Of a stretch of DNA of 64,000 nucleotides, positions 1,791-19,213 are shown one piece after another. The stretch covers positions 6,532 through 70,531 of the forward strand of contig JBFYPG010000021.1 in NCBI GenBank assembly GCA_041303415.1. The letters are read 5' to 3'. Source of the DNA: Bacteroidales bacterium. Lineage in GTDB: Bacteria > Bacteroidota > Bacteroidia > Bacteroidales > VadinHA17. The translations under genes were made by a program, and so were the position numbers. How positions within the stretch are numbered: position 1 is the first letter of the stretch; each line of letters opens with the position of its first letter. The notes beneath the pieces were generated by a model, which saw only the letters and a list, made by a program, of their open reading frames with translations, ran no database searches and had not been told where the DNA came from.

Positions 1791-2306
1791 ATGAAAAAAA
1801 TAGGCGTTTTAACAGTAATAATGGTTCTGACTTCAGCCATGGCTGTAGCTCAGAAATATGCGTTTGTTGATTCTGAGTATATCAGGAAAAACATACCGGC
1901 CTTTACAACAGCACAGGAGCAGCTTGATAAACTCTCGGAACAGTGGGAGAAAGAAGTCGCTGACGGTTATGCGGTTGTTGAACAGATGTACAAATCGTAC
2001 CAGAATGAAGCCGTGCTTCTTTCACAGGAAATGAAAACCAAAAGGGAGGAAGCCATCATCGCCAAAGAACAGGAGATGAAGGAGCTTCAGAACAAGTACT
2101 TCGGAATGGAAGGCGAGCTTTTCAAGAAAAGGGAAGAACTTGTGAAACCCATTCAGGATGAAATTCTTAAAGCGATCAAGGACATTGCTGTTGAAGGAAG
2201 CTATGCCGTTATTTTCGATACTGCTTCCGGAGGGAATATTCTTTTTGCCAACCCCAAGTACGACATTAGCGATCAGGTACTTGAAAAATTAGGTTATAAC
2301 AATTAA
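1791..2306 (+). CDS. OmpH/Skp-family periplasmic chaperone (copy 1)
   Basis: Signal peptide MKKIGVLTVIMVLTSAMAVAQ; ~170 aa; K/E/Q-rich coiled-coil body; directly downstream of bamA. ATG at 1791 preferred over TTG at 1782. Confidence 0.8.
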   Translation: MKKIGVLTVIMVLTSAMAVAQKYAFVDSEYIRKNIPAFTTAQEQLDKLSEQWEKEVADGYAVVEQMYKSYQNEAVLLSQEMKTKREEAIIAKEQEMKELQNKYFGMEGELFKKREELVKPIQDEILKAIKDIAVEGSYAVIFDTASGGNILFANPKYDISDQVLEKLGYNN

Positions 2307-2343
2307 TTAATTACTTTTGCAAATAATTTATAAAACTATCGTA

Positions 2344-2850
2344 ATGAAAAGATTCATAGGAATTGCAGCTCTCCTGATATTTGTTGCAACTGCCGGTTAT
2401 TCACAAAACCTGAAATTCGGGCATATTAACAGCGACGAGCTTATCCAGGCACTGCCTGAATTTGATTCAGCAAATGTAAAGCTTGAAAGTCTGCAGAAGG
2501 AGCTTGTAAATGCACTCGAACTTATGCAGGTGGAGCTAAATAATAAAAGTGATGCATATAATAAGGAAAGCAAAACCCTTACTGACATTGTTAGGCAGAC
2601 CAAGGAACAGGAACTTATCGATCTCAACAGAAGGATCCAGGACTTTCAGACCAGTGCCCAGGAACAGCTTCAGAATAAGCAGGTTGAACTATTTCAGCCG
2701 ATCTATGTGAAGGTTGACAAGGCAATAAAGGACGTTGGCAAGGAGAACGGATTTACATACATTTATAATGTAGCAACACTGCTCTATGTTGATGAAGCCA
2801 AAAGCACCAATATTATGACGCTGGTCAAGGCAAAACTAGGGATCAAATAA
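2344..2850 (+). CDS. OmpH/Skp-family periplasmic chaperone (copy 2)
   Basis: Signal peptide MKRFIGIAALLIFVATAGYSQ; same size and composition as copy 1; block FGHINSDELIQALPE. ATG at 2344 preferred over TTG at 2317. Confidence 0.8.
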   Translation: MKRFIGIAALLIFVATAGYSQNLKFGHINSDELIQALPEFDSANVKLESLQKELVNALELMQVELNNKSDAYNKESKTLTDIVRQTKEQELIDLNRRIQDFQTSAQEQLQNKQVELFQPIYVKVDKAIKDVGKENGFTYIYNVATLLYVDEAKSTNIMTLVKAKLGIK

Positions 2851-2869
2851 GACTAAATATTTTTATCAG

Positions 2870-2900
2870 TGACCATCCTTTCCGGGATGGTCATTTTTTT
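2870..2900 (+). terminator. Rho-independent terminator after the bamA-skp-skp unit
   Basis: A 9-bp stem TGACCATCC / GGATGGTCA with loop TTTCCG, followed immediately by T7 (2894-2900). Confidence 0.65.
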
Positions 2901-2910
2901 ATAAGATATC

Positions 2911-3711
2911 GTGAAAAAACAACCTATCGGGATTTTTGACTCAGGCGTTGGCGGACTGACAGTCGCACATGCGATAAAACAAATCCTGCCGGGGGAAAGT
3001 CTGGTTTATTTCGGCGATACCGCCCATCTTCCCTACGGCGACAAATCAGCTGATTCAATTAAATATTATTCCCGGAGGATCACCGAATTCCTTCTTGAGA
3101 ATAATGCAAAGGTGGTGCTCGTGGCCTGCAACTCTGCTTCTTCTTCAGCATTCGACACCCTGAAAAAGGAGTTTAAGGGCAAAACCATACTTTTTGACGT
3201 TATCGATCCGGTTGTGGACTACATAAGTACCCGCGATTTCAGGAAAATTGGCGTTATAGGCACAAAGCGCACAATCAGCTCGGGAACATATGAGGCAAAG
3301 ATCAGGCAGAAGTCGCCGTCAACCACGGTAGTTTCAATGGCAACTCCGCTGCTGGTACCGATGATCGAGGAAGGCTTTATCTTTGACGATATAAGCAACG
3401 CCATCATCCGTGCATACCTTTCCGACCAGTCCCTGTCCGGTATCCAGGCTCTGATACTTGGATGCACTCATTATCCGATAATAAAGAACCAGATCAGCAA
3501 GATATTCAACTTCAATGTTGAGGTTGTTGATTCGGCCAGGCTCGTGGCATCGATACTCAGGGATGCTCTGGAAAAAAATGGACTTCTGAATGATTCGGGG
3601 AAGGTAAGGGACCAGTTTTATGTGTCAGACTATACCCCTTATTTTGAGAAGATCGCGAGAATGTTTTTCGAGGGAGATATAAACCTTAAGAAGGTTGAAA
3701 TCTGGAACTGA
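2911..3711 (+). CDS. murI: Glutamate racemase
   Basis: GTG start. Motifs IGIFDSGVGGLTV, LVACNSAS and LILGCTHYP, which carry the two catalytic Cys contexts of Asp/Glu racemases. 266 aa. Confidence 0.9.
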   Translation: MKKQPIGIFDSGVGGLTVAHAIKQILPGESLVYFGDTAHLPYGDKSADSIKYYSRRITEFLLENNAKVVLVACNSASSSAFDTLKKEFKGKTILFDVIDPVVDYISTRDFRKIGVIGTKRTISSGTYEAKIRQKSPSTTVVSMATPLLVPMIEEGFIFDDISNAIIRAYLSDQSLSGIQALILGCTHYPIIKNQISKIFNFNVEVVDSARLVASILRDALEKNGLLNDSGKVRDQFYVSDYTPYFEKIARMFFEGDINLKKVEIWN

Positions 3712-3725
3712 GCTTCTGTCAAAAC

Positions 3726-3763
3726 ATGACCAAAGTCATACACAATATTCAGGAATATTGTGT
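3726..3763. promoter_or_regulatory. Two abutting perfect palindromes between murI and korA (operator candidates or stem-loops)
   Basis: ATGAC-caaa-GTCAT (3726-3739) is followed directly by ACACAATATT-cagg-AATATTGTGT (3740-3763). No T-run follows, so this is not a classical terminator. Confidence 0.3.
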
Positions 3764-3853
3764 TGCTTCGAACTTAATTTTCAGGTACCTTTATATTCCA
3801 TAAATAATTGATTAAGTGTAATAAAGCCTCCCATCTAATACTGGAAACTTATC

Positions 3854-5698
3854 ATGGCTAAAAATTCAGAGGTTATTAAGAGAGAAGAGGTGGTGATCCG
3901 TTTTTCAGGTGACTCCGGCGACGGCATGCAGCTGACCGGGACTCTTTTTTCAGATACGGCAGCCCTATACGGCAACGACCTGTCTACCTTTCCCGATTAT
4001 CCGGCGGAGATCCGTGCACCCCAGGGAACAGTCGGAGGTGTCTCCGGCTTTCAGGTCCATCTCGGGCATTCAGAGATAAATACCCCGGGGGATTATGCTG
4101 ATGTCCTCGTAGCAATGAACCCTGCTGCCATCAAGGCAAATGCCATGTGGGTCAGGCCAGGCGGCACTATCATTTTTGATAAGGACAACTTCACTGACAA
4201 GAATATCGAAAAGGCCGGATATCTCAATGACCCCGTAAAGGAAGAAAAGATAGAAAACTACAATATCATTGCAGCTCCGATCTCATCAATGGTAAAAGAA
4301 GCCCTGAAGGATTTCGGCCTTGATCCCAAATCGGTGCTGAGGACAAAAAATATGTTTGCCCTCGGAATGGTGTACTGGCTTTTTGACAGGAAACTTAAAT
4401 ATACCGAGCAGTATTTTGAAAAGAAATTCAGCAAGAAGCCTGAAATGGCTGAAGCAAACAAGGTTGCTCTCCGGGCCGGGTACTATTATGCCGAGACCAT
4501 TGAAGCTTTGAATCCTGTTATTAAAATTGAACCGGCGGAGATTGCCCATGGCACTTACAGAAATATAAGCGGAAATGCGGCTACAGCGTGGGGTTTTATC
4601 GCTGCTGCAGAAAAAGCCGGATTAAAGCTTTTCGTGGGTTCCTATCCCATAACCCCGGCAACCGGCATACTTGAAGAACTTGCTGCCCGTAAAGACCTTG
4701 GGGTCAAGTCATTCCAGGCCGAGGATGAAATTGCAGGCATATGCACTGCCCTTGGAGCAAGCTTTGCCGGCAACCTGGCTGTGACATCAACATCAGGCCC
4801 GGGGCTGGCCCTTAAATCAGAAGCTATCGGACTTGCCGTGATGGCTGAACTTCCGGTAGTCATTGTAAATGTACAGCGCGGAGGACCTTCGACTGGTTTG
4901 CCGACCAAGACCGAACAGGCCGACCTGATGCAAGCTCTCTTCGGACGCAACGGCGAATGCCCGGTTGTGGTCATTGCAGCCAGCACACCCTCCGACTGTT
5001 TCAGGTATGCTTATGAAGCGGCAAAAATTGCACTGGAACATATGACCCCGGTTCTTCTGCTGACTGACGGTTACCTGGCCAACGGTTCCGAACCCTGGAA
5101 AATTCCCTCAGTTTCAGAGCTGCCCGGTATCAGGCCTCCCTTCGCCGACAGTAAGGATGTCCCATTTCTTCCTTACAAGCGTGACTGCGAAACACTTGTA
5201 AGGTCGTGGGCAATCCCGGGTACGCCGGGTCTTGAGCACAGGATAGGAGGGCTCGAAAAAACGTTAAAGGGAACAGTATCCTATATACCCGAGAACCATG
5301 AGATGATGGTAAAATTCAGAGCCGACAAGGTGGCAAAAGTTGCCGGTTCAATCCCCGATCTTGACGTTTATGGCGAAGATTCGGGCGACCTTCTGGTGCT
5401 GGGATGGGGAGGAACAAAAGGTTATCTGTTGACTGCCGTAAGGGAACTGCAGTCAGAAGGATATAAGGCCAGCCTCGCTCATTTCAACTATATTAATCCA
5501 CTGCCGGTAAATATGTGTGATGTCTTCAGAAAATTTAAAAAGATCGTCATTGCGGAACTCAACATGGGGCAGTTTGCTGATTATCTGAGGATGAAGTGCC
5601 AGGAATTCAGGTATGAACAGATCAATAAAGTACAGGGAATTCCATTCACCATAAAGGAGCTTAAGGATAAATGCATTAAAATTCTGGAGGAAAAATAA
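3854..5698 (+). CDS. korA: 2-oxoglutarate/2-oxoacid:ferredoxin oxidoreductase, alpha subunit (fused gamma-alpha type)
   Basis: 614 aa. The N-terminal gamma-like part (FSGDSGDGMQLTG) is followed by an alpha part with GSYPITPAT and VQRGGPSTGLPTK. The beta subunit starts 1 nt after the stop. Confidence 0.85.
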   Translation: MAKNSEVIKREEVVIRFSGDSGDGMQLTGTLFSDTAALYGNDLSTFPDYPAEIRAPQGTVGGVSGFQVHLGHSEINTPGDYADVLVAMNPAAIKANAMWVRPGGTIIFDKDNFTDKNIEKAGYLNDPVKEEKIENYNIIAAPISSMVKEALKDFGLDPKSVLRTKNMFALGMVYWLFDRKLKYTEQYFEKKFSKKPEMAEANKVALRAGYYYAETIEALNPVIKIEPAEIAHGTYRNISGNAATAWGFIAAAEKAGLKLFVGSYPITPATGILEELAARKDLGVKSFQAEDEIAGICTALGASFAGNLAVTSTSGPGLALKSEAIGLAVMAELPVVIVNVQRGGPSTGLPTKTEQADLMQALFGRNGECPVVVIAASTPSDCFRYAYEAAKIALEHMTPVLLLTDGYLANGSEPWKIPSVSELPGIRPPFADSKDVPFLPYKRDCETLVRSWAIPGTPGLEHRIGGLEKTLKGTVSYIPENHEMMVKFRADKVAKVAGSIPDLDVYGEDSGDLLVLGWGGTKGYLLTAVRELQSEGYKASLAHFNYINPLPVNMCDVFRKFKKIVIAELNMGQFADYLRMKCQEFRYEQINKVQGIPFTIKELKDKCIKILEEK

Positions 5699-5699
5699 T

Positions 5700-6722
5700 A
5701 TGGCTGAGCTGAAAACATACAATTATACTCCCAGGGATTTTAAATCGGATCAGGAGGTAAGATGGTGCCCCGGCTGCGGCGACCACGCTGTTCTGAATGC
5801 CGTTCAGAAAGCTTTAACAGAACTGGGAATACCCAAGGAAAAATTTGTTTTTGTTTCCGGAATAGGATGTTCATCAAGGTTTCCGTATTATATGGATACC
5901 TATGGATTTCATGGTATACACGGCCGTGCATCAGCAATAGCAACCGGAGTTAAAACAGCAAACCCTGAACTTTCAGTATGGCAGATCACAGGTGACGGCG
6001 ATGCGCTTGCGATAGGCGGAAACCACTTCATTCACGTAGTGCGTCGGAATGTGGATATAAATATAATCCTGTTCAACAACGAGATATACGGCCTTACAAA
6101 AGGACAATATTCACCAACCTCCGAGAAAGGCCTGGTGACAAAAACCTCACCCTTCGGAACAGTGGAAGAGCCCTTCTCGGTGGGAGAACTGGTAATCGGT
6201 GCAAAAGGCAAGTTCTTTGCCCGCACACTCGATTCAAATGTTGCGCTTTCAACACAGATCTACATTGAAGCTGCAAAACACAAGGGAGCTTCGGTAGTTG
6301 AAGTCCTTCAGAACTGCGTGATCTTCAACGACGGCATCCATGATGTTGTTGCCGGCAGGGAAGTAAGAGAAGACCGTACAATAGTGCTGAAGCATGGCGA
6401 ACCGATGATCTTCGGTAAAAACAATGATAAGGGACTTGTGCTTGACGGACTGAAGCTTAAGGTGGTCAGGCTGGGAGAGAACGGCATTACTCAGAAGAAC
6501 CTTATCGTTCATGATGCCATGGAGCCGAACCCCGGCATTCAGTACATGCTGGCCAATATGAGATACCCTGAGTACCCGATGGCGCTTGGAGTCATCAGGT
6601 CGGTGCCGGGACACACTTATGAAAATGACCTTGTGGAGCAGATCAATCATATTCAGAAGGATGCAAAGATCAAATCTGTAACCGATCTGCTTGCAAGCGG
6701 CTCCACCTGGAAAGTGGAGTAG
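5700..6722 (+). CDS. korB: 2-oxoglutarate/2-oxoacid:ferredoxin oxidoreductase, beta subunit (TPP binding)
   Basis: Motifs WCPGCGDH, SGIGCSSRF and GDGD..AIGGNH (TPP motif). 340 aa, tightly coupled to korA. Confidence 0.9.
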   Translation: MAELKTYNYTPRDFKSDQEVRWCPGCGDHAVLNAVQKALTELGIPKEKFVFVSGIGCSSRFPYYMDTYGFHGIHGRASAIATGVKTANPELSVWQITGDGDALAIGGNHFIHVVRRNVDINIILFNNEIYGLTKGQYSPTSEKGLVTKTSPFGTVEEPFSVGELVIGAKGKFFARTLDSNVALSTQIYIEAAKHKGASVVEVLQNCVIFNDGIHDVVAGREVREDRTIVLKHGEPMIFGKNNDKGLVLDGLKLKVVRLGENGITQKNLIVHDAMEPNPGIQYMLANMRYPEYPMALGVIRSVPGHTYENDLVEQINHIQKDAKIKSVTDLLASGSTWKVE

Positions 6723-6780
6723 GAGGCGTTCCCATTTATTTTACTATTTTTATCTTCTTATATTCTCACATATTGGTGTG

Positions 6781-9700
6781 ATGGATGGGAATAACCATAT
6801 AACCCCTGAATACAGAAAATTGCTGCACGACCAGCAGGAGAGACTGAAAGAACTGGGGTGCATAAACCAGACAACTTATATACTCAAGGAGGGGAAGCCA
6901 ATTGAAGAAACCCTTCAGCAGATCGTACTTCTTCTTCCGGCTGCCTGGCAATACCCTGACTATACCTCAGCCAGAATAAAATTCCGCGACAAAAACTTTG
7001 AAACACCTGATTTTCAGGAGACTGCATGGAAGATGGCTCAGGAATTCATGACCATAGACGACGAGAAAGGAGCAATCGAGGTCTTCTATACCAGGGAATT
7101 TACAGTGGAAAATGAAGGACCGTTCCTGAAGGAGGAAAGAGACCTGATCCGGAATATTGCAAGCCTTGTAACCGGGTATATAAACAGCTATAAGGCACGC
7201 GATTTCATCAGGATGACAAAGGCGCCCCGGGAAGAGGAGGACATCTCAAATGTTTCGAGCAGGAAGCTGCTTCAGAAATTCCTCGAACGTCACAATGCTG
7301 AAAGAGATGTATTTCACGACCTTCAGCCTTTTAAAGTCAAGGAGATACTGCTGGTGGCAAACCTGTACGATGCTTATTCAATTGAGGGAGAAGGCAGGTT
7401 TGCAGACCACATTCTTGGAGAATATTACCAGCTCAGTCTGACATCACTGCCCAGGGTAACAGGGGTTTCGAGCGAGGAGGAAGCATTCAATAAGCTGAGA
7501 TCCAGGCATTATGACATGATAATCATAATGATCGGCATCCATAAGGAGAGCCCAATGCTGCTTTGCAAGAAGATCAAGGACAAGTACCCGTACATGCCAA
7601 CATTCCTGCTTCTGAATAATCCGGAGGATGTCCCATATGTAAGGAAGCAGAAGGCAGGCGGCATCCCCTTTGATAATTATTTCGTGTGGACGGGCGAATC
7701 GAAGGTTTTCTTCGCAATGGTGAAGCTCCTTGAGGATATGGTCAACGTCGAAAATGACACGCGGAAAGGACTTATAAGGGTGATACTTATCGTTGAGGAT
7801 TCAGCCGAATATTACTCCAGCTACCTCCCGATGCTATACACCCTTGTGCTTGAACAGACCAGGAACCTCATAGAGGATGTCTCGACCGATGAGCTTTATA
7901 AAGTGCTGAGACTAAGGGCAAGGCCAAAGATTCTTCTCGCATCCACCTGGGAAGATGCCATCACGATATACAATAACTACAAGGAGAGCCTGCTGTGCAT
8001 CATTTCCGATATGCGGTTTCCAAGGAATGGCGTCATGCATGACACTGCCGGTTTTGAACTTATTCAGCAGGTAAAGGCGGAACTGCCCAACCTCCCCACA
8101 GTTCTTCAATCGGCAGATGCTGAGAATGCACGATATGCCTATACCCTGAAATCGAATTTCATAAACAAGAATTCTGAGAGCCTCCTCCAGGACCTTAAGT
8201 CATTTATCAACTATTACCTCGGTTTCGGGCATTTTGTATACAGGGATGACAAGGGGCGGCAGATAGCCGTGGCTAAATCAATGAAGGAGTTTGAATCATA
8301 CCTTGAGACCGTTCCGGAAGATTCACTGGCCTATCATGCAATGAAAAACCATTTCTCTTTGTGGCTGATGGCAAGAGGGGAGGTAAAAATAGCCAAGCTT
8401 ATCAATCCAATAAAAGTCACCGATTTTCAAAGTCTTACAGAGCTGAGGAAGTTTCTTCTCGACATAATCCGTAGACGGAGGCGGGAGATGAACAAGGGTC
8501 GCGTTGTAAATTTTGAGGAATCCGTTACGATTGATGAAACAAATGTTGTAAGCCTTTCGGGCGGGTCGCTGGGTGGAAAAGGCAGAGGACTGGCTTTTAT
8601 AAATACCCTTATTTACAGTTTTGAGCTTGGCAGGCTTCTTCCGGGGATCAGGATCAAGGCGCCTGTTACGGCAATCATCGGGACGGATGAGTTCGACATG
8701 TTCATGGAACGAAACCATCTGTGGGATACCATCAAGGAGGAGAGAGCTTACACACTCCTGCAGAAGCTTTTCCTGACGGCTAATCTCAGCTATACTCTCG
8801 AGAAAAAACTGAGGATGTTCCTCAGGCAGACAGAAAAACCTCTTGCCGTAAGATCATCCAGCCTTTTTGAAGATTCAATGAATCAGCCATTTGCAGGAAT
8901 ATTCAGGACATACCTTCTGCCAAATAATCACGCTGATTTTGATGTCAGGCTCCGGCAGCTCTCAGATGCAATCAAGCTGGTTTTCTGTTCTATCTATTCA
9001 AAAAATGCACGCACATATTTTGAGGCCATTAACTATAAGATAGAACAGGAAAAGATGGCAGTGGTACTTCAGGAGGTTGTCGGAAACCGTTTCGAAGATG
9101 CATTTTATCCTCATATCAGCGGAACAGCCCAGTCATACAATTTTTACCCTGTTGCTCATATGAGACCGGAGGAAGGATTTGCCGTGATGGCTGTCGGGCT
9201 CGGGCACTATGTTGTTGAAGGGGAAAAGGCTTTCAGATTCTCTCCGGCTTACCCGGCAACTGATATTCTTTCACATCACGACCAGTCCGAAAACTCACAG
9301 GTGCATTTCTATGCAGTAGATATGGCGAAGAAAGACCTTAACCTGCTTGAAGGCGAAAATGCCGGACTTGTTTCCCTTGATATCGGCAAGGCGGAACAAC
9401 ATGGCACGCTTAGTCATTCAGCCTCAGTGTATAACGTTGATAATGACACTCTTGTCGCCGGCCTTGATATTCCCGGGCCCCGTGTGGTCAATTTTGCGGA
9501 TATTTTAAAATACAACTATGCCCCTTTGGCATCTACGATAAGGACCATTCTTGATGTGGTCACGGAAGCCACTGGAAATCCTTCCGAGATTGAATTCGCT
9601 ATGGACCTGACAAGGGACAAGGACGGGCATACCTCATTTTATCTCCTTCAGATTAAACCGCTTATCGGCACAATAGCCGGATATGACATCGAACCCGGGA

Positions 9701-10224
9701 GTTACAGCAGGGATGACGTCGTGCTTGAAACAGGGAAAAGCATGGGTAACGGAGTGATAGATGACATCACGGATGTGATATACCTCGAACCCGAAAAATT
9801 CGATAATCTTCAGACACCCCTGATGGCTGACGAGATAGACAGGATAAACGAAAAAATGCTTAAAGAAGGCAGGCGATACGTGCTTATAGGCCCCGGAAGA
9901 TGGGGATCAAGGGATAAATTCATCGGCATACCTGTCGTTTGGTCCCAGATATCAAACGCAAAGATCATTGTTGAAATCAGCCTTCCCGATTTTCATGTTG
10001 ATGCCTCGCTGGGCTCCCATTTCTTCCATAATGTCATATCAATGAACGTAGGTTATTTCTCGATTAACCATTCCCTGCAGAACGGTACTGTCAACTGGGA
10101 CAAGCTAAAAGCTCAGGAAACCGTTGATAAGGGAATTTTCTTCAGGCATGTAAGGTTCGAAAAGCCCCTGCTGATAAGGATGGACGGGAAAAAGGGAATC
10201 GCAGTAATTACAATGAATCAATAA
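6781..10224 (+). CDS. Multidomain protein of unknown function: N-terminal sensor module + receiver-like domain + receiver (REC) + PEP/pyruvate-binding (PPDK_N-type ATP-grasp) domain + conserved C-terminal domain
   Basis: ATG at 6781 chosen because the listed start at 6691 overlaps korB. REC signature RVILIVEDSAEY...CIISDMRFP. ATP-grasp signatures GGSLGGKGRGLAF and LAVRSSSLFEDS..QPFAGIF. The C-terminal block YVLIGPGRWGSRD..IGIPVVW is shared with the next gene. No GG.TSH phosphohistidine motif was seen. Confidence 0.6.
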   Translation: MDGNNHITPEYRKLLHDQQERLKELGCINQTTYILKEGKPIEETLQQIVLLLPAAWQYPDYTSARIKFRDKNFETPDFQETAWKMAQEFMTIDDEKGAIEVFYTREFTVENEGPFLKEERDLIRNIASLVTGYINSYKARDFIRMTKAPREEEDISNVSSRKLLQKFLERHNAERDVFHDLQPFKVKEILLVANLYDAYSIEGEGRFADHILGEYYQLSLTSLPRVTGVSSEEEAFNKLRSRHYDMIIIMIGIHKESPMLLCKKIKDKYPYMPTFLLLNNPEDVPYVRKQKAGGIPFDNYFVWTGESKVFFAMVKLLEDMVNVENDTRKGLIRVILIVEDSAEYYSSYLPMLYTLVLEQTRNLIEDVSTDELYKVLRLRARPKILLASTWEDAITIYNNYKESLLCIISDMRFPRNGVMHDTAGFELIQQVKAELPNLPTVLQSADAENARYAYTLKSNFINKNSESLLQDLKSFINYYLGFGHFVYRDDKGRQIAVAKSMKEFESYLETVPEDSLAYHAMKNHFSLWLMARGEVKIAKLINPIKVTDFQSLTELRKFLLDIIRRRRREMNKGRVVNFEESVTIDETNVVSLSGGSLGGKGRGLAFINTLIYSFELGRLLPGIRIKAPVTAIIGTDEFDMFMERNHLWDTIKEERAYTLLQKLFLTANLSYTLEKKLRMFLRQTEKPLAVRSSSLFEDSMNQPFAGIFRTYLLPNNHADFDVRLRQLSDAIKLVFCSIYSKNARTYFEAINYKIEQEKMAVVLQEVVGNRFEDAFYPHISGTAQSYNFYPVAHMRPEEGFAVMAVGLGHYVVEGEKAFRFSPAYPATDILSHHDQSENSQVHFYAVDMAKKDLNLLEGENAGLVSLDIGKAEQHGTLSHSASVYNVDNDTLVAGLDIPGPRVVNFADILKYNYAPLASTIRTILDVVTEATGNPSEIEFAMDLTRDKDGHTSFYLLQIKPLIGTIAGYDIEPGSYSRDDVVLETGKSMGNGVIDDITDVIYLEPEKFDNLQTPLMADEIDRINEKMLKEGRRYVLIGPGRWGSRDKFIGIPVVWSQISNAKIIVEISLPDFHVDASLGSHFFHNVISMNVGYFSINHSLQNGTVNWDKLKAQETVDKGIFFRHVRFEKPLLIRMDGKKGIAVITMNQ

Positions 10225-10235
10225 AAAGTTGTAAA

Positions 10236-13208
10236 ATGACCATTATAGAAGGGATTCTTGATCTTCAGAAATACGATTTCACCGACACATCTTTCAACCT
10301 GCTAATGCAGAAAAGAATCCATAAGGTTCTTATAATATGCAGTAATTATGATAATTACATGCTTGAGGAAGACGGCAGGATCGATGAGCAGATCTTCAAT
10401 GAGTATGTGTCGCTTAATCTGAGGTATCCCCCCATTTTTGTACAGACCGACAATGCTGATGATGCGTTCGGAATGCTTCAGGCCGGCGATGTTGACCTCG
10501 TGATATCGATGGTAAGCCTGAAGGGCACAGATGTTTTTGCACTGGCAAAAAGGATCAAGGAACAATATCATTATATTCCTATTGTAGTTCTTACATATTT
10601 TTCAAGGGAGGTTTCCTTAAGGCTTGAGGGCGAGGACCTGAGTGCCATTGACTATGTTTTCTGCTGGCTGGGCGATGCTGCGCTCATACTGGCGATAATC
10701 AAGCTTATTGAAGACAAGATGAATGCCGAACACGACATAGAAAGCATAGGGGTTCAGGCTATAATTCTTGTAGAGAATTCAATAAGATACATCTCTTCGT
10801 ACCTTCCGAACCTCTACAGGATCGTACTGATGCAGTCGCTCGACTTTCAGCGGGAAGCACTGAATGAGCATCAGCGGATGCTGAAAATGAGAGGCCGTCC
10901 GAAGATACTTCTCGCCACCAACTTCAACGATGCGGTGACACTGTATATTAAATATAAGTATAATGTACTTGGTGTAATTTCCGATATCAGCTATAAGAAA
11001 GATGGCGTTCAGGATGAGAATGCCGGCATAGAGCTGTGCAAAGTGGTGATGGCCGATGATGATAAAGTGCCCTTCCTTCTACAGTCATCAAGCTCTGAGC
11101 ACAGGAGGTTTGCAGAGGAGCTCGGCGCTGGCTTCATCAACAAATATTCCAAGTCACTCTCCCTGGAGCTGAGGAATTTTATCATCCAGAACCTGGCTTT
11201 TGGGCCGTTCGTATTCAAGAACCCCGATACAATGGAGCCGATAGCAATTGCTACCGACCTCCAGAGCCTTCAGCAGAAGTTACTGACCATCCCCGATAAT
11301 TCACTTGATTATCATGCGACCAGGAACCACTTTTCCAAATGGCTTAATGCCAGGGCTTTATTCCCTGTAGCCCAGATGTTCAAGTATATCCGAAAGGAAG
11401 ATTTTGATACGATGGATGAGATGAGGAGGTTCCTCTACGTAGCCATCTCAAGCTTCAGGCTTGGAAAAGGCAGGGGTGTGATTGCCAAGTTTGACAAGTC
11501 AACTTTCGATGAATACCAGATATTTTCACGGATTGGTGAGGGCTCAATTGGAGGGAAAGCGCGAGGGCTTGCATTCATAAACAAGATGATCAAGAACAAC
11601 AAGCTTTTCAACAAGTTCCCTGATGTGCTGATTACGATTCCGAGAACTGTTGTGCTGAGCACAGACATCTTCGATGAGTTCATGGATCATAACAACCTCT
11701 ATTCAGTAGCACTCTCCGATCTTTCCGACGATGAGATACTTAACCGTTTCATAAATGCCGAGCTGCCCGGGAGGGTTTACCAGGATTTTTATGCTTTTCT
11801 CGCTGTATCAAGAAGCCATCCCCTGGCAGTGCGCTCTTCAAGCAAACTGGAAGACTCACATTACCAGCCTTTTGCAGGAGTCTATTCAACTTATATGATA
11901 CCACGGCTCCCCGACAACAAACTTATGGTAAAAATGCTGTCGGATGCCATCAAGGAGGTTTATGCTTCAGTCTATTACAAGGCAAGCAAGGCATATATGA
12001 CCGCAACCTCCAATGTTATTGATGAAGAAAAAATGGGCATCGTCCTTCAGGAAGTCTGCGGGAACAGGCACGGCGATATCTTTTATCCGACAATCTCGGG
12101 TGTGGCCCAGTCAATAAATTATTATCCTATCGGTTCCGAAAAAGCAGAAGACGGCATAGCTAATGTCGCATTCGGGCTTGGAAAACTGATCGTTGAGGGA
12201 GGCATGTCGCTGCGCTTCTGTCCCCGCCACCCGAAAAAAACACTTCAACTTTCGTCTCCTGAGGTGGCTCTCAGAAATACGCAGAAAGAGTTCCGTGCCC
12301 TTGATCTGAATATGAGCAGCTTTGTGCCGTCGACTGACGACGGGATAAATATTCCACGGATCGATATAAGGGATGCCAACAACGACGGAGCTATGAAATA
12401 CATTGCCTCCACCTATGACATACAGAACAATGTGCTTCATGACGGAATATTGCATCCGGGCAACAGGGTAATTACATTTTCAGGGATTCTGGAGCATAAA
12501 TCTTTCCCCCTTGCCGATATACTTACCACCCTTCTTGATCTCGGCCAGAGGGAGATGAACAATCCTATTGAAATTGAATTTGCAGTGAACCTTGAAACGC
12601 CCCCCGGCACTCCAAAGGTTTTTAACTTTCTGCAGATCAGGCCAATAGTTCATTCGGAGGAAACATACAACATTAATCTTGAGAAGACTAGCTCAGGGGA
12701 TTCCATAATATTTTCAGAATCGGCTTTGGGCAATGGTGTTTTCAAGGGGATACATGACCTCGTTTATGTCAAGCCTGAATCATTCAACGCATCCCAAAAC
12801 AAGTCCGTTGCCGGGATAATTGAGAATCTGAATTCTTCATTTGTCAGGGAAGCCCGGGGTTATGTGCTTATAGGGCCAGGCAGATGGGGATCGACAGATC
12901 CCTGGCTGGGGATACCGGTCAAATGGCCTCAGATATCGGCAGCCAGGATAATTGTGGAATCCGGGCTTAAGAATTACAGGATAGATCCAAGCCAGGGTAC
13001 ACATTTCTTCCAGAACCTTACATCATTCGGGGTAGGTTACCTTACGATAAATCCTTACATCAATGAAGGATATTATGATGTCGATTACCTCAACAGGCTC
13101 GATGTGGTTTATGAAGACAGTTTCATCCGCCACATCCGTTTCGATAAGCCGCTGGAGATCATGATCGATGGCAGAAGGCACAAGGGAGCGATAATGAAGC
13201 CGGTATAA
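10236..13208 (+). CDS. Paralog of the preceding gene, lacking the N-terminal sensor module: receiver-like domain + REC-like domain + PPDK_N-type ATP-grasp domain + conserved C-terminal domain
   Basis: Collinear blocks with the upstream protein: AIILVENSIRYISSYLP, RPKILLAT, VISDISY, NSLDYHATRNHFSKWL, GGKARGLAFIN, LAVRSSSKLEDS..QPFAGVY, and YVLIGPGRWGSTDPWLGIPVKW...GTHFFQN. Confidence 0.6.
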   Translation: MTIIEGILDLQKYDFTDTSFNLLMQKRIHKVLIICSNYDNYMLEEDGRIDEQIFNEYVSLNLRYPPIFVQTDNADDAFGMLQAGDVDLVISMVSLKGTDVFALAKRIKEQYHYIPIVVLTYFSREVSLRLEGEDLSAIDYVFCWLGDAALILAIIKLIEDKMNAEHDIESIGVQAIILVENSIRYISSYLPNLYRIVLMQSLDFQREALNEHQRMLKMRGRPKILLATNFNDAVTLYIKYKYNVLGVISDISYKKDGVQDENAGIELCKVVMADDDKVPFLLQSSSSEHRRFAEELGAGFINKYSKSLSLELRNFIIQNLAFGPFVFKNPDTMEPIAIATDLQSLQQKLLTIPDNSLDYHATRNHFSKWLNARALFPVAQMFKYIRKEDFDTMDEMRRFLYVAISSFRLGKGRGVIAKFDKSTFDEYQIFSRIGEGSIGGKARGLAFINKMIKNNKLFNKFPDVLITIPRTVVLSTDIFDEFMDHNNLYSVALSDLSDDEILNRFINAELPGRVYQDFYAFLAVSRSHPLAVRSSSKLEDSHYQPFAGVYSTYMIPRLPDNKLMVKMLSDAIKEVYASVYYKASKAYMTATSNVIDEEKMGIVLQEVCGNRHGDIFYPTISGVAQSINYYPIGSEKAEDGIANVAFGLGKLIVEGGMSLRFCPRHPKKTLQLSSPEVALRNTQKEFRALDLNMSSFVPSTDDGINIPRIDIRDANNDGAMKYIASTYDIQNNVLHDGILHPGNRVITFSGILEHKSFPLADILTTLLDLGQREMNNPIEIEFAVNLETPPGTPKVFNFLQIRPIVHSEETYNINLEKTSSGDSIIFSESALGNGVFKGIHDLVYVKPESFNASQNKSVAGIIENLNSSFVREARGYVLIGPGRWGSTDPWLGIPVKWPQISAARIIVESGLKNYRIDPSQGTHFFQNLTSFGVGYLTINPYINEGYYDVDYLNRLDVVYEDSFIRHIRFDKPLEIMIDGRRHKGAIMKPV

Positions 13209-15340: not shown

Positions 15341-15398
15341 GTTGAAAGGTTGAAGGGTGTTGAAGAGGGTTGAAGGAGGTTGAAGGATGTTGAAGAAA
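15341..15398. repeat. Tandem oligomer repeat, six GTTGAAG-core units (period 8 then 10 nt) running into the mqnB start
   Basis: The units are gttgaaag / gttgaagggt / gttgaagagg / gttgaaggag / gttgaaggat / gttgaagaaa. The mqnB ATG (15387) lies inside unit 5, and AAGGAGG (15373-15379) lies in unit 4. Confidence 0.85.
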
Positions 15399-16058
15399 GT
15401 TCTGATAGTAGCTGCAACTGAGAGTGAGGCTGATGCCCTGAGGATGATTTCAGGCATGATTAAGGTTGAAAATTGCTTCCGGTTCGGAAACCTGGAGATA
15501 GATCTTCTTGTGACTGGTGTTGGTTCTGTCTCCACATCATGGGCCATGATGAAATGGTTTTCTTCGAATCCCGGACCGGAACTGGCCATTAACATTGGCA
15601 TAGCAGGAAGTTACAGCCACGATATTGCAGTTGGGGATGTTGTTGCACCGGTTTCCGACTGCTTTGCCGATTCAGGCGTGGAAACAGAAGATGGCTTCAT
15701 CACTCTTTATGAGGCAGGCATGGGCGATCCTTTCGTGAGAGGAGGAAAGATGGTTTCAGACAATATTTACACCACGGTTCTCATGAAAATGCTGAGGCCG
15801 GTTTCTGCAGTTACTGTAAATACTGTTACCGGATCAGCTGATACGATACGAAAGATCACGGGAAAATTTAATCCCGGAATCGAAACCATGGAGGGCGCTA
15901 CTTTTTTTTATATTTGCCTGCGGGAAAAAATCCCCTTTGTTTCTTTACGGTCCATTTCGAACAGAGTAGAGCCCAGGAACAGGAAAAAGTGGGATATACA
16001 TCTGGCTGTCGGCAATTTATCAGAGAAGCTCAGGGATTTCCTTATAATGGTTGAATGA
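15387..16058 (+). CDS. mqnB: Futalosine hydrolase (PNP/UDP-1 nucleosidase fold)
   Basis: 223 aa. Blocks LIVAATESEA, TGVGSV, GIAGSY, VNTVTGS and ETMEGATFFY...LRSISNRV are typical of MqnB/MTA-nucleosidase-like enzymes. Immediately followed by mqnD. Confidence 0.7.
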   Translation: MLKKVLIVAATESEADALRMISGMIKVENCFRFGNLEIDLLVTGVGSVSTSWAMMKWFSSNPGPELAINIGIAGSYSHDIAVGDVVAPVSDCFADSGVETEDGFITLYEAGMGDPFVRGGKMVSDNIYTTVLMKMLRPVSAVTVNTVTGSADTIRKITGKFNPGIETMEGATFFYICLREKIPFVSLRSISNRVEPRNRKKWDIHLAVGNLSEKLRDFLIMVE

Positions 16059-16062
16059 AATT

Positions 16063-16914
16063 ATGAAACTGACACTGGGATTCTCGCCATGCCCTAACGA
16101 CACCTTCATTTTCGATGCAATGGTGCATGGGAGAATAGATACGGAAGGGCTTGAGTTCGATTATTTCATGACAGATATAGAAGAACTCAATACCAGGGCA
16201 TTATCAGGAGATGTTGATATTACCAAATTGAGCCTGCTGGCTTTTGCGCTTGCATCACATAACTATCTTATACTTGATTCAGGAAGTGCCATTGGCCACA
16301 GAAACGGACCTCTGCTGATAACCAAAAAACAGATCGACCTGAAAGATATAGCCTCAGCCAGGATAGCTATTCCGGGAAAAAACACTACTGCCAATATGCT
16401 CTTTACTATTTTCTGGCCTGAAGCGGCAAATAAAAAAGAGTTTATTTTTTCGGAGATTGAAGATGCCCTTCTCAGGGATGAAGCTGATGCCGGTCTTATA
16501 ATCCATGAAAAACGATTTACATATCATAAGAGAGGATTCCTGAAATTAGCCGACCTGGGGGAACAGTGGGAGAAGCTCACGAACCTTCCCATTCCGCTGG
16601 GTACAATCGCTATAAACCGCAGGATACCGGAAGAGACAGCGCTGAAGGTTAACCGTATCATTCACCGCAGCCTTGAGTACGCCTATCACGATTCACTTGC
16701 ATCATATGATTTCATTAGGGCAAATGCCCAGGAGATGGACAGTACAGTAATGAATAAGCATATCAAGCTGTTTGTAAATAAATACACTTCAAACCTCGGC
16801 AGGGAAGGGAAAAAAGCAATAAGCGAACTGTTAAGGCTGGCAAGAGGCAAAATGGAAATTCCGGATCTGCCTGAAAATATTTTCCTGACAGGCAATCGAT
16901 CAAGCACAATCTGA
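16063..16914 (+). CDS. mqnD: 1,4-dihydroxy-6-naphthoate synthase (futalosine pathway)
   Basis: The N-terminal LGFSPCPNDTFIFDAM motif is characteristic of MqnD. ~284 aa. ATG at 16063 lies 5 nt after the mqnB stop (the listed TTG at 16051 overlaps it). Confidence 0.75.
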   Translation: MKLTLGFSPCPNDTFIFDAMVHGRIDTEGLEFDYFMTDIEELNTRALSGDVDITKLSLLAFALASHNYLILDSGSAIGHRNGPLLITKKQIDLKDIASARIAIPGKNTTANMLFTIFWPEAANKKEFIFSEIEDALLRDEADAGLIIHEKRFTYHKRGFLKLADLGEQWEKLTNLPIPLGTIAINRRIPEETALKVNRIIHRSLEYAYHDSLASYDFIRANAQEMDSTVMNKHIKLFVNKYTSNLGREGKKAISELLRLARGKMEIPDLPENIFLTGNRSSTI

Positions 16915-16926
16915 TCAGTAAAAGAT

Positions 16927-17499
16927 ATGAAACTAAAAGAACTTATTGCCAGAACGCGTTCATACAGGCGGTTTGATGAATCGCACCGGATAGACTATAA
17001 AATACTTGAGGGTTTGATCGACCTGGCAAGGCTTTCCCCTTCAGGAGCCAACAGGCAGCCGCTTAAATTCGTATTGTTCAATTCAAAACGTGATTGTGAG
17101 AGACTCTTTCCTTCGCTTGTATGGGCTGCATATCTGAAAGACTGGGATGGCCCGGAAGCCGGAGAGAGGCCTTCAGGTTACATAATTATACTGGGTGATA
17201 AAACCATATCCGAAGGATTCGGAGTGGATCATGGAATTGCTGCCCAGAGTATCATGCTTGGCGTTAATGAAGCAGGTCTTGGAGGGTGCATGTTTGCCTC
17301 AATAAGGCGCGAACAGCTTCGAAACGAATTCAGTATACCTGAAAAATATGAGATCCTCCTGGTCCTTGCATTAGGCAAACCCATTGAAAATGTGATAATT
17401 GATGAAATTAACGATGGAGACGTCAGATACTGGAGAGACAAAAACAGTAACCATCATGTACCAAAGCGGCCCCTGAATGAGTTAATTGTTAAGCTGTAA
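16927..17499 (+). CDS. Nitroreductase-family flavoprotein
   Basis: 190 aa. Motifs RSYRRF and LARLSPSGANRQPLKF, typical of the nitroreductase fold. Confidence 0.75.
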   Translation: MKLKELIARTRSYRRFDESHRIDYKILEGLIDLARLSPSGANRQPLKFVLFNSKRDCERLFPSLVWAAYLKDWDGPEAGERPSGYIIILGDKTISEGFGVDHGIAAQSIMLGVNEAGLGGCMFASIRREQLRNEFSIPEKYEILLVLALGKPIENVIIDEINDGDVRYWRDKNSNHHVPKRPLNELIVKL

Positions 17500-17515
17500 C
17501 CGTAACCGGCAGGAA

Positions 17516-18232
17516 ATGCGGAAATGTTATATCATATTGCTTATGCTGTTCTGCTCTGTCATCGCAGTTAACGGGCAGGTGCTGAAAGATGCAGGTTCCA
17601 GGATCCTGTTTCATGGTGCAATTTTTGACGCCGCCACTTTAAGGGCGCTTGCCGGATCACAGATAATAATCAACAGCAAGTCATACTCGGTCAGCGATGA
17701 GGAGGGCAGGTTTGCATTTTATGTATTGAGGGGCGACACGGTCTCCTTCACAAGGGTGGGATATAAATCTGCCCGGCTCACTATAAGCGATACTCTTTCA
17801 GGCAGGGAATTTGTTGCAGGCGTCTATATGCACACTGATACACTGGAAATAGAGGAAGTGGTCATAATACCAAGGTTTTCCAACCTGCGGTCAGAGATGT
17901 TCACATCCCGTCCCGAAGCAGACATAAAGATCGAAAATGCAAAATATAACCTTGAAGTATCATCCTACCAGGGAAGGTTGGGTACATCGCGGTTGGGCGA
18001 TCCGGCAATGAATTACGAGGTACTGAGGCAGCAGCACCGCAGCGACGCCTACTCGAAAGGGCAGATCCCGTCAGACAGGATCGTCGGGTTAAGCCCTTTT
18101 ATGATAATACCTGCTGCATATCTCCTTATGAACGGATTGCCTCAAAAACCCTCTCCCCTGAAACCGCAAATCACCGAACAGGAAGTGGAGCAGATCCACA
18201 GGAAATATATTGAAGCAATCAGGAAAAAATGA
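17516..18232 (+). CDS. Secreted protein with a carboxypeptidase-regulatory-like (CarboxypepD_reg) beta-sandwich domain
   Basis: Signal peptide MRKCYIILLMLFCSVIAVNGQ. The block G.IFDA......AGSQIIIN......SDEEGRFAF.V..GD.V.F..VGY matches the CarboxypepD_reg pattern. Confidence 0.55.
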   Translation: MRKCYIILLMLFCSVIAVNGQVLKDAGSRILFHGAIFDAATLRALAGSQIIINSKSYSVSDEEGRFAFYVLRGDTVSFTRVGYKSARLTISDTLSGREFVAGVYMHTDTLEIEEVVIIPRFSNLRSEMFTSRPEADIKIENAKYNLEVSSYQGRLGTSRLGDPAMNYEVLRQQHRSDAYSKGQIPSDRIVGLSPFMIIPAAYLLMNGLPQKPSPLKPQITEQEVEQIHRKYIEAIRKK

Positions 18233-18301: not shown

Positions 18302-19213
18302 TCATCCTTTATAGAATATGGCCTTGATTATCTGGCTGGCCATCTTCGGATTTTCCTTTAGCCGCCTTGTGCAGTAGCCAAACCATTTGACTCCGAACGG
18401 AACATAAATCCTCATGGTGTGGCCTTCAGCTACTATAGAGTCGCGGAGACCGGGAGTGACGCCGTATAGCATCTGGAATTCGTACAGATTCTTCGGGACA
18501 TTGTATTGTTTTAAAAGCTTATAGGCGCCTTCAACCAGCGGTTTGTCATGAGTGGCGATCCCGACGTGTATCTTGTTTTTGAACATGAATTCCAGATCTT
18601 CCAGGAAATGCTGGTTTACCTCTTCATATTTTTTATATGCAATTGCTTCAGGTTCTATGTAAATTCCCTTGCAGAGTCTGAAACTGAGAGGAGCGGCTTC
18701 GCTGTTAAGGTCAGCCAGTGATTTTATGTCATCGAGGGTCCTCCTTAGATAAGCCTGGACCACAAGCCCGACATTCGATGGGAATTCGGTTTTCAGCCGG
18801 CGGAAAAGTTCTATTTCAAGAGTCGTGCATGGTGAATCTTCCATATCGATCCTGATAAAACCATTGTATGAAGCTGCCTTTGCCACTATCTCCCTGATAT
18901 GCCTGTAGCATACTTCCTTATCTATCAGAAGACCAAAACTGGTGGGCTTGACGGAAAAATTCCCCATGATTCCGTTCCTGTACGAGACATCGATCACATC
19001 AAGGTATTCCTTCTTGTTGGCTTCAGCTTCACTGAGATCTTTTATAAATTCGCCAAGAACGTCAATTGTGACAAGGATGTTTTTGCCGTTGAGTTCTTTT
19101 GATACGCGCATTGCATCGTCTACTGACTCCCCCGAAACATAGGATTTGGAGAATATCCATACGAACTTTTTCGGAAAATAAGGCAATATTGCAGCAATGA
19201 ATTTGTTAAACAT
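18302..19213 (-). CDS. Proline dehydrogenase (monofunctional PutA-like)
   Basis: 303 aa TIM-barrel-type sequence. Blocks ILVTIDVLGE, IRIDMEDS, FRLCKGIY.EPE and YVPFG..W.GY..RRL.ENP are typical of ProDH. Confidence 0.75.
   Translation of the reverse strand: MFNKFIAAILPYFPKKFVWIFSKSYVSGESVDDAMRVSKELNGKNILVTIDVLGEFIKDLSEAEANKKEYLDVIDVSYRNGIMGNFSVKPTSFGLLIDKEVCYRHIREIVAKAASYNGFIRIDMEDSPCTTLEIELFRRLKTEFPSNVGLVVQAYLRRTLDDIKSLADLNSEAAPLSFRLCKGIYIEPEAIAYKKYEEVNQHFLEDLEFMFKNKIHVGIATHDKPLVEGAYKLLKQYNVPKNLYEFQMLYGVTPGLRDSIVAEGHTMRIYVPFGVKWFGYCTRRLKENPKMASQIIKAIFYKG

Follow-up and report, generated by a model that had tools for sequence, protein, structure and literature searches.

A receiver-linked ATP-grasp family with a new C-terminal domain and its association with glutamate dehydrogenase genes in Bacteroidota

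Two adjacent genes, here termed P1 and P2, were analysed in a 64,000-nucleotide stretch of DNA from a Bacteroidales bacterium of the VadinHA17 lineage (contig JBFYPG010000021.1, forward strand; hereafter the window). They encode paralogous proteins that join two receiver-like modules to an ATP-grasp domain of the phosphoenolpyruvate (PEP) synthase/pyruvate,phosphate dikinase (PPDK) type, PPDK_N, and end in a further domain which is not a swivelling phosphohistidine domain; it is new and has no detectable relative in Pfam or the Protein Data Bank (PDB). Genes of this family are associated with the glutamate dehydrogenase (GDH) gene gdh, and the association holds across lineages and architectures. 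The family may be an unrecognised control device for nitrogen and carbon metabolism. As the best reading of the whole, which we put forward tentatively and at somewhat less than an even chance, the proteins would carry out ATP-dependent phosphotransfer, gated by a phospho-aspartate, at the glutamate/2-oxoglutarate node, perhaps by modifying GDH.

Domain architecture of P1 and P2

A preliminary description of this DNA, made from the sequence alone, had reported two collinear paralogues separated by an 11-nucleotide (nt) gap, quoted a series of peptide motifs and proposed the domain order receiver–receiver–PPDK_N. The coordinates proved exact, all quoted motifs are present in the P1 and P2 translations, and BLASTP aligned the two proteins collinearly with 38% identity over 976 aligned residues (659 bits, E = 0). 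The domain order was borne out as well, PPDK_N (1e-34 and 5e-35) and the first receiver block (REC1) being recognised by Pfam and the second block (REC2) by a structure model and Foldseek. The P1 open reading frame spans 6691–10224, and its start was placed at the first ATG (6781) because an identical database protein (P0121) has 1147 amino acids (aa) and the orthologues have 1147–1148 aa; P2 orthologues comprise 989–991 aa. In window coordinates, the pair is made up as follows:

6781..10224, + strand: gene P1, 1147 aa (N-terminal domain, pseudo-receiver, receiver, linker, PPDK_N, C-terminal domain)
6781..7275, + strand: P1-only N-terminal domain, about 165 aa (P1 residues 1–165), ERLKELxCIN...AWQYPE...EGPFLKEERDLI
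7336..7734, + strand: P1 REC1, predicted pseudo-receiver, about aa 186–318; Pfam Response_reg at 223–277, E 2.5e-5, below cutoff
7771..8211, + strand: P1 REC2, predicted true receiver, about aa 331–477; conserved residues, fold taken from the P2 model
8212..8565, + strand: P1 linker, DUF5752-like, GFGHFVYR...SLAYHAMKNHFSLWL
8566..9663, + strand: P1 PPDK_N, aa 596–961; Pfam E 1.1e-34
9688..10221, + strand: P1 C-terminal domain, GPGRWGS.D ... IIVE ... SLGSHFFHN
10225..10235, + strand: P1–P2 spacer, 11 nt
10236..13208, + strand: gene P2, 990 aa (pseudo-receiver, receiver, linker, PPDK_N, C-terminal domain)
10317..10715, + strand: P2 REC1, predicted pseudo-receiver, about aa 28–160; Pfam Response_reg at 69–142
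10749..11195, + strand: P2 REC2, predicted receiver, about aa 172–320; AlphaFold2 (AF2) model, Foldseek, conservation
11196..11543, + strand: P2 linker, two short strands and a helical bundle (AF2), NSLDYHATRNHFSKWL
11544..12671, + strand: P2 PPDK_N, aa 437–812; Pfam E 5.2e-35
12672..13205, + strand: P2 C-terminal domain, aa 813–990, 178 aa

The PPDK_N family PF01326 scored 120.6 bits in P1 and 121.7 bits in P2 against a cutoff of 27. When residues were counted per column in a 53-sequence alignment (30–53% identity to P2, except for two close orthologues at 85–88%), the nucleotide and Mg ligands GGK441, R533-SSS, E539-D540, Q605, E779-x-E781 and Q800 were found to be invariant in 53/53 sequences and in both window paralogues. 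A family profile searched against the PDB matched rifampin phosphotransferase (RPH) and PEP synthase at 1e-9, in the ATP-grasp domain only, and hhalign aligned this domain with that of Escherichia coli PEP synthase (PpsA) at 96% probability. NCBIfam PEP-synthase equivalog models reached 20–52 bits on P1 and P2 compared to cutoffs of 598–1063. The complete set of ligands makes ATP-dependent catalysis by P1 and P2 very probable.

Both proteins end 178 aa after the ATP-grasp domain and lack the PEP/pyruvate-binding TIM barrel (PF02896). For the last 178 residues of P2, AF2 gave a model from a 43-sequence alignment with a predicted local distance difference test score (pLDDT) of 94 and a predicted template-modelling (TM) score of 0.90. 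The preliminary description had proposed comparing such a model with known folds and had failed to find a phosphohistidine domain; the Foldseek search against 350,542 PDB chains yielded no match at E ≤ 0.001 (best E 0.019, TM 0.37), and the top 50 entries included none for PPDK, PpsA, enzyme I or RPH. Neither PF00391, the family of the PEP-utilising His domain, nor PF02896 matched P1 or P2 at E ≤ 1, PF00391 did not match any of 43 family C-terminal domains at E ≤ 10, no other Pfam family matched these domains, and the profile search of the PDB returned nothing beyond the ATP-grasp domain. With hhalign, the C-terminal domain aligned to PpsA at 30% probability, mostly through the shared ATP-grasp end 'EIEFA...LQIRP'. 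A canonical His domain hidden in the C-terminus is thus ruled out by Pfam, the PDB profile search, Foldseek and hhalign, which all agree, and a likeness between 'GRWGS-DPWLGIPV' and 'GGRTCHAAIIARELGIPAV' was without statistical support. Of the three structural parts of a PEP-utilising dikinase, P1 and P2 have the ATP-grasp domain and lack the other two, the His domain and the TIM barrel.

Strictly invariant residues mark this C-terminal domain, namely R883, G885, D888, E908, S919, G921, H923, F924 and F925 in P2 numbering, or, in domain numbering, G70, R71 and G73 (GPGRWGS), G80, and G109, H111 and F112 (S-x-G-[ST]-H-F-F). Because of this invariance, the domain is clearly predicted to be functional. 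The preliminary description had rested its doubts about the chemistry on the missing GGxTSH motif. The domain that carries this motif was indeed not found, but its absence does not equal absence of a phospho-carrier, because invariant Arg, Asp and Glu residues and an invariant His, that of S-x-G-[ST]-H-F-F, are found in the C-terminal domain. Phospho-His chemistry would be possible, since the invariant His follows Ser/Thr and the domain is placed where PpsA has its His domain; as judged from conservation, His923 is a conceivable phospho-carrier, though a doubtful one. The weak Foldseek matches (TM 0.27–0.37, E ≥ 0.019) comprised the LD-carboxypeptidase PA5198, the carbamoyl-phosphate synthetase small subunit and the PA domain. 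These presumably all belong to the 'swivelling beta/beta/alpha' fold in SCOP, and assignment of the modelled C-terminal domain to that fold class is a lead, not a result.

The two receiver blocks differ in their predicted roles. Pfam Response_reg matched the first block and not the second, with 33.2 bits in P2, above the cutoff of 30.2, and 24.8 bits in P1, below it. As stated in the preliminary description, REC1 lacks the acidic pocket: in both proteins the acidic pair is missing and Met occupies the phospho-Asp position (Met92 in P2), while across the 53-sequence alignment this position is Met, Thr or Phe, again without an acidic pair. By these residues, REC1 is a predicted pseudo-receiver. 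REC2 gave no match in the Pfam and PDB profile searches, in which PDB response-regulator matches were confined to REC1. An AF2 model of P2 residues 165–436 (pLDDT 93), however, showed a domain of (beta-alpha)5 topology that contains an insertion and leads into a small linker domain of strands and helices, and Foldseek with the REC2 model retrieved only response regulators (CheY at TM 0.73–0.75, probability 1.00), with PorX also among the top matches. According to this model, REC2 is a receiver by fold.

The acceptor residues of REC2 are widely kept. P1 has the E-D pair, the acceptor Asp (IISDMRFP), the Ser (LQS) and the Lys (INK), which agrees with its earlier description as canonical. P2 had been described as degraded, and this holds for a single position: E180, D250, S284 and K303 are present, and the only exchange affects a single Mg ligand (N181, where most of the family has Asp). 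Across the 53 members, E180 is conserved in 52/53, D181 in 44/53, D250 in 49/53, S/T284 in 51/53 and K303 in 50/53. The second acidic residue is Asn in 120/120 close P2 orthologues (window 10749–10766, P2 residues 177–182, ILVENS), and Asp in 118/119 P1 orthologues and 87/88 single-copy Bacteroides orthologues; among the genome loci surveyed, Asn was confined to those with a P1 gene upstream. This distribution marks the Asp-to-Asn exchange as an apparent lineage-fixed change after duplication. Conservation of the pocket suggests that the receiver gates ATP use via Asp250, which we consider likely.

P1 additionally carries an N-terminal domain that is kept in all P1 orthologues, in the further motif form ERLKELxCIN...LLPxAWQYPE...EGPFLKEERDLIxNIA. 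It gave no Pfam match and no PDB sequence match (best E 0.26). It may be a sensor module, its motif resembling, as we take it, those with which many histidine kinases of archaea and Bacteroidota begin. The P1 linker marginally matched half of Pfam DUF5752 (PF19027; model positions 20–110 of 208) at residues 498–574 with 24.1 bits against a cutoff of 23, and PF19027 is precomputed on many P1 orthologues. The P2 linker had no DUF5752 match in Pfam, though it is homologous to the P1 linker block. A full-text search of the literature found no mention of DUF5752.

A family-wide association with glutamate dehydrogenase

The family is large and goes under generic names. Searches returned at least 8000 matches for P2 and 3353 for P1, the C-terminal domain alone formed about 1700 clusters at 50% identity, and at least 599 species encode members (one genome per GTDB species scanned). 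The C-terminal domain stood at the C-terminal end of the protein in 143 of the 150 matches listed, the remaining 7 being double-unit fusions, and PPDK_N lay directly upstream of it in 9/9 Pfam-scanned matches. Orthologues occur in Bacteroides ovatus, B. finegoldii, B. salyersiae and B. intestinalis, within clusters of 2222–4973 member sequences. Database records call these proteins 'PEP/pyruvate-binding domain-containing protein', 'phosphoenolpyruvate synthase', 'pyruvate, phosphate dikinase', 'response regulator' or 'CheY-like chemotaxis protein'; all 360 homologues listed had only PF01326, with or without PF00072 and PF19027, and none of them had PF00391 or PF02896.

To survey gene neighbourhoods, we called open reading frames in 79 Bacteroidota genome loci and labelled them by phmmer or Pfam. 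Family-I gdh was an immediate neighbour in 29/79 loci and lay within three genes in 35/79. Three arrangements were seen: in many Bacteroidales gdh lies downstream in the same direction; Lutibacter, Polaribacter and other Flavobacteriia carry a gdh on each side of the family gene; and in Bacteroides, Parabacteroides, Tannerella and Paludibacter the two genes are divergent. Of nine distant metagenome members that were also looked up, 8 had informative flanks, and 7 of these, receiver-less fusions included, had gdh as their direct neighbour, mostly in the order gdh then family gene with gaps of 8–190 bp; for L085, a further check confirmed that the neighbour is gdh. No other recurring neighbour emerged among the 74 remaining flanking genes, whose 97 Pfam families were each found at 5 loci or fewer.

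In the window, the pair is preceded by genes resembling korAB:

3854..6722, + strand: two-subunit 2-oxoacid:ferredoxin oxidoreductase (korA-like 3854–5698, korB-like 5700–6722)
6723..6780, + strand: korB–P1 spacer, 58 nt, without terminator and without an exact TAnnTTTG motif

These genes have Pfam POR/POR_N and TPP_enzyme_C matches and an NCBIfam OAFO_sf score of 654 bits against a cutoff of 483. Since only generic 2-oxoacid models pass their cutoffs, 2-oxoglutarate is no more than a plausible substrate of the encoded enzyme. The preliminary description had inferred co-transcription from the 58-nt spacing after korB and the lack of a terminator, and from it a link to the PEP–pyruvate node. 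The spacing is correct (korB stop at 6722), a scan of the + strand of the spacer found no terminator, and korAB is indeed directly upstream here. Immediately upstream korAB genes were, however, restricted to one Bacteroidales clade (13/79 loci), and korAB-(P1)-P2-gdh strings were found at loci L013, L057, L058, L071 and L079. The korB–P1/P2 spacers of some relatives contain terminator-like GC hairpins with T runs (L013 and L079, also L041 and L071) or a Bacteroidetes-type promoter motif, TAnnTTTG, 24 nt before the start codon (L025 and L057). Membership of a korAB operon as a family trait is ruled out on both counts; co-transcription of P1 with korAB in the window is possible, but because of these hairpins and promoter motifs it is not a conserved trait. 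As gdh is the family-wide partner and korAB is lineage-restricted, the metabolic link is probably with the 2-oxoglutarate/glutamate node, and the proposed link to PEP and pyruvate has to be given up.

P1 was found immediately upstream of P2 at 19 of the 79 loci, all in one Bacteroidales lineage; elsewhere a single P2-type gene is present. The divergence of P1 and P2 fits a sub-functionalisation after duplication, in which P1 would be the signal-receiving protein and P2 a partner with an altered receiver. Among the distant members, three receiver-less proteins of 1523–1654 aa consist of two units of PPDK_N plus C-terminal domain, the GPGRWGS/E/S-x-G-T-H-F-F residues being retained in each unit. 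In P0255 and P0313, but not in P0270, a canonical Pol-beta-type nucleotidyltransferase (FGS...SDVDLL) forms the end of the second unit. The receiver-less two-unit systems, all immediately after gdh, are:

L082, 8001–12920
L083, 6001–10965
L085, 1304–5875 (P0270)
L088, 1559–7728, the two units being separate adjacent genes after gdh

The nucleotidyltransferase is present on the second unit in L082, L083 and L088 and not in the L085 fusion. That the C-terminal domain itself is a Pol-beta nucleotidyltransferase was rejected, NTP_transf_2 in P0313 being an extra domain after the second C-terminal domain. From these arrangements, the units probably work in pairs, and a physical P1–P2 heteromer would be in line with them.

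Several further genes were noted near members of the family. Metallophos (calcineurin-like) phosphoesterase genes adjoin the family gene in L086 (4507–5367), in L088 (7725–8510) and at three Bacteroidota loci, and so in several lineages unrelated to one another; if there is a modification cycle, their products could be the phosphatases that reverse it. A gene of ~375 aa, weakly P1-like (38–47 bits), lies on the minus strand, convergent to a P2-type gene, in L014 (10535–11659), L047 (10535–11656) and L050 (2045–3163), with gdh just beyond it in L014 and L047. In several Bacteroidales, NuoF-like (~592 aa) and 2Fe-2S/GltD-like/hydrogenase-like (~1230 aa) genes flank the P2-type gene (L015/L018 3790–7475 and upstream, L016, L045 12701–16565), and these represent another NAD(P)H/ferredoxin redox enzyme in the neighbourhood. 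In the window, fabD, folE and a PTPS/QueD-like gene follow 3′ of the pair on the opposite strand. Farther on lie a futalosine hydrolase gene (15387–16058, +; NCBIfam TIGR03664, 146 bits against a cutoff of 124.7) and three co-directional open reading frames up to 18232 without a family match, so that 15387–18232 may represent a menaquinone cluster of the futalosine route, here in a member of the Bacteroidales. A proline dehydrogenase-like gene that stands alone (18302–19213, –; NF045947 E 2e-57, below the equivalog cutoff), another glutamate-family catabolic gene, lies ~5 kb from the pair.

Proposed mechanism and rival explanations

We propose that P1 and P2 belong to the PEP-synthase/PPDK ATP-grasp lineage and act in the cytoplasm as enzymes of ATP-dependent phosphotransfer, a single new C-terminal domain having replaced both the swivelling phosphohistidine domain and the substrate barrel. 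A histidine kinase would phosphorylate the REC2 aspartate (Asp250 in P2), with REC1 playing a structural role only, and this would release or activate the ATP-binding ATP-grasp domain. The C-terminal domain, with His923 and the Arg883/Ser886/Asp888 loop as the candidate residues, would then receive a phosphoryl or pyrophosphoryl group and hand it on to a target at the glutamate/2-oxoglutarate node, most likely GDH, as a reversible covalent modification. In the korAB clade, the 2-oxoacid:ferredoxin oxidoreductase would be another possible target. P1, with its extra sensor-like domain and canonical receiver pocket, would act together with P2 and its Asp-to-Asn pocket. The parts of this proposal differ in strength: a function at the GDH/2-oxoglutarate node is likely, and GDH itself as the covalent target is a possibility we rate on the doubtful side.

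Older work on Bacteroides GDH offers leads in the same direction. Yamamoto et al. reportedly observed a reversible in-vivo inactivation of B. fragilis GDH in 1987. According to Baggio and Morrison (1996), the activity of B. thetaiotaomicron GdhA is said to depend on one or more trans-acting genes near gdhA, a segment of about 3 kb reportedly being needed in trans for activity in E. coli; we take this as a lead only. The NAD(P)H-GDH of B. fragilis forms three spots on 2D gels (PMC4539542), which is compatible with a modification and no proof of it. In its most specific form, the proposal would have GDH, and in some lineages 2-oxoglutarate:ferredoxin oxidoreductase, controlled post-translationally by a two-component-switched 'protein dikinase' whose C-terminal domain, with His923 as phospho-carrier, modifies GDH in Bacteroidota, among them the dominant Bacteroides of the human gut, and in metagenome-only lineages; so specified, it is somewhat unlikely.

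A number of observations weigh against the proposed control of GDH. About half of the Bacteroidota loci have neither gdh nor korAB nearby, and no gdh was found within the 64-kb window, so that the GDH link in this organism is by homology to relatives only. No histidine kinase gene recurs near the family gene, L083 alone having one (a hybrid kinase), and none was found adjoining the P1–P2 pair in the window. Gene adjacency cannot tell a GDH regulator from an enzyme that shares a GDH substrate. With the PpsA His domain alone, hhalign gave the C-terminal domain a non-significant probability of 0.3%, and the role of His923 is a guess. The factor of 1996, described as lying downstream of gdhA, may have been something other than the family gene, because in Bacteroides sp. 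L073 this gene is upstream of and divergent from one gdh and the ~3 kb downstream of the other gdh hold unrelated genes. Finally, we infer catalysis, the acceptor residue, the target, the pairing of P1 with P2 and the direction of regulation from predicted anatomy and gene neighbourhoods.

Alternatively, the family could consist of small-molecule dikinases that phosphorylate a metabolite of the glutamate/2-oxoglutarate pool or make a phosphorylated signalling metabolite, with the C-terminal domain as substrate-binding or catalytic site and with GDH and KorAB as neighbours through the shared pool. The characterised PPDK_N relatives that were matched all use small molecules (PEP synthase, PPDK, rifampin phosphotransferase, PigC/RedH), the conserved polar residues of the C-terminal pocket would suit a small ligand, and the neighbours are metabolic enzymes of one node. 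The family, however, is without the third, substrate-binding domain found in PpsA, PPDK or RPH, and a receiver fused to a housekeeping metabolic enzyme would be unusual. Moreover, the paired or fused units, accompanied here and there by a nucleotidyltransferase or a phosphoesterase, suggest a modification cycle more than a pathway step, and no transporter or further pathway genes recurred among the flanking genes of the 79 loci. On this evidence, we consider the small-molecule explanation unlikely.

A further rival holds that the proteins are signalling devices or energy sensors, the ATP-grasp domain reading ATP/AMP or autophosphorylating within a phosphorelay; they would act by partner binding or control of expression, without covalent action on GDH, and adjacency to gdh would reflect co-regulation. 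While the two receiver modules and the sensor-like domain of P1 point to signal integration, the hybrid kinase adjoins one system and about half of the loci lack a gdh or kor neighbour, the Mg/phosphate ligands and nine C-terminal residues are strictly invariant, which argues for turnover chemistry over binding alone, and a Pfam scan of P1 and P2 found no DNA-binding domain. We therefore rate this explanation as quite improbable.

A xenobiotic or antibiotic phosphotransferase of the rifampin type was also considered, as the closest solved sequence relatives of the ATP-grasp domain are the Listeria rifampin phosphotransferases (PDB 5hv1 and 5fbs, 1e-9). The match is limited to ~150 ATP-grasp residues (profile positions 467–614); RPH has a His swivel and a rifampin-binding domain, P1 and P2 have neither, the RIF_Ptrans_rph model NF041857 scored 17–19 bits against a cutoff of 999, and the genomic context is core metabolism, not resistance, so that this explanation is very improbable. 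An ordinary PEP synthase or pyruvate,phosphate dikinase, as the database names and the strong PPDK_N match would have it, is refuted on domain content, that is, by the missing PF00391 and PF02896, the low equivalog scores (20–52 bits) and the lack of a swivel-domain match in Foldseek.

Relation to known systems and significance

Homologue records and full-text literature searches yielded no characterised member of the family, in agreement with the preliminary description, and a literature search found no described response regulator with a PPDK_N ATP-grasp output. P1 and P2 share with PpsA and PPDK the homologous PPDK_N domain with the same Lys/Arg/Glu/Gln ligands and, with PpsA, the presence of a further domain immediately behind the 'E-x-E ... 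LQxRP' end of ATP-grasp; in PpsA, this position is taken by the His domain. They differ from both by lacking the His domain and the TIM barrel and by having two receiver modules and a linker before the ATP-grasp domain. RPH illustrates that this type of ATP-grasp domain can be re-used with non-metabolic acceptor modules. In the fold and phospho-acceptor set of the modelled REC2, the proteins resemble response regulators with enzymatic output such as PorX (REC-PglZ), CheB and RssB, while the PPDK_N output, the extra upstream pseudo-receiver and the lack of an adjacent cognate kinase gene set them apart.

PknG–GarA/OdhI, which control the 2-oxoglutarate node in Actinobacteria, and GlnE, which adenylylates glutamine synthetase (GS), exemplify signal-dependent covalent modification that sets the flux through GDH, 2-oxoglutarate dehydrogenase, glutamate synthase (GOGAT) or GS. 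The analogy to the present family is functional only: its members are tied to GDH/KorAB by genomic context, some of them carrying a nucleotidyltransferase, and have no sequence or fold relationship to those systems. In the Desulfovibrio 'nitrate cluster', the gene of a PPDK_N-type, PPS-like protein (Dde_0604/DVU0246) is accompanied by genes for a histidine kinase, a response regulator and a phosphatase (PMC4001038). Like P1 and P2, this protein is of the PPDK_N type and without assigned function, but it retains the mobile PEP-utilising His domain, has its receiver on a separate protein and belongs to another family.

The family described here brings together a signalling input, a catalytic core that depends on ATP and a new domain, which is a new architecture among PEP-synthase-type ATP-grasp enzymes; if our proposal is true, its members would be the first known PPDK_N-type ATP-grasp enzymes that function without a canonical swivelling His domain. 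Thousands of records of this family named 'phosphoenolpyruvate synthase' or 'pyruvate, phosphate dikinase' are misannotated, which matters for metabolic models of gut bacteria. To our knowledge, Bacteroidota do not possess the classical NtrBC/GlnD/GlnE nitrogen-control circuit, and how their GDH-based ammonia assimilation is switched on and off has, as far as we know, been unclear since the 1980s. Control of GDH by this family would, if true, explain the old reports that B. fragilis GDH is reversibly inactivated and that B. thetaiotaomicron GdhA needs a factor acting in trans for its activity. An abundant, conserved and so far unnamed family linked to gdh is a concrete candidate for the GDH switch of Bacteroidota.

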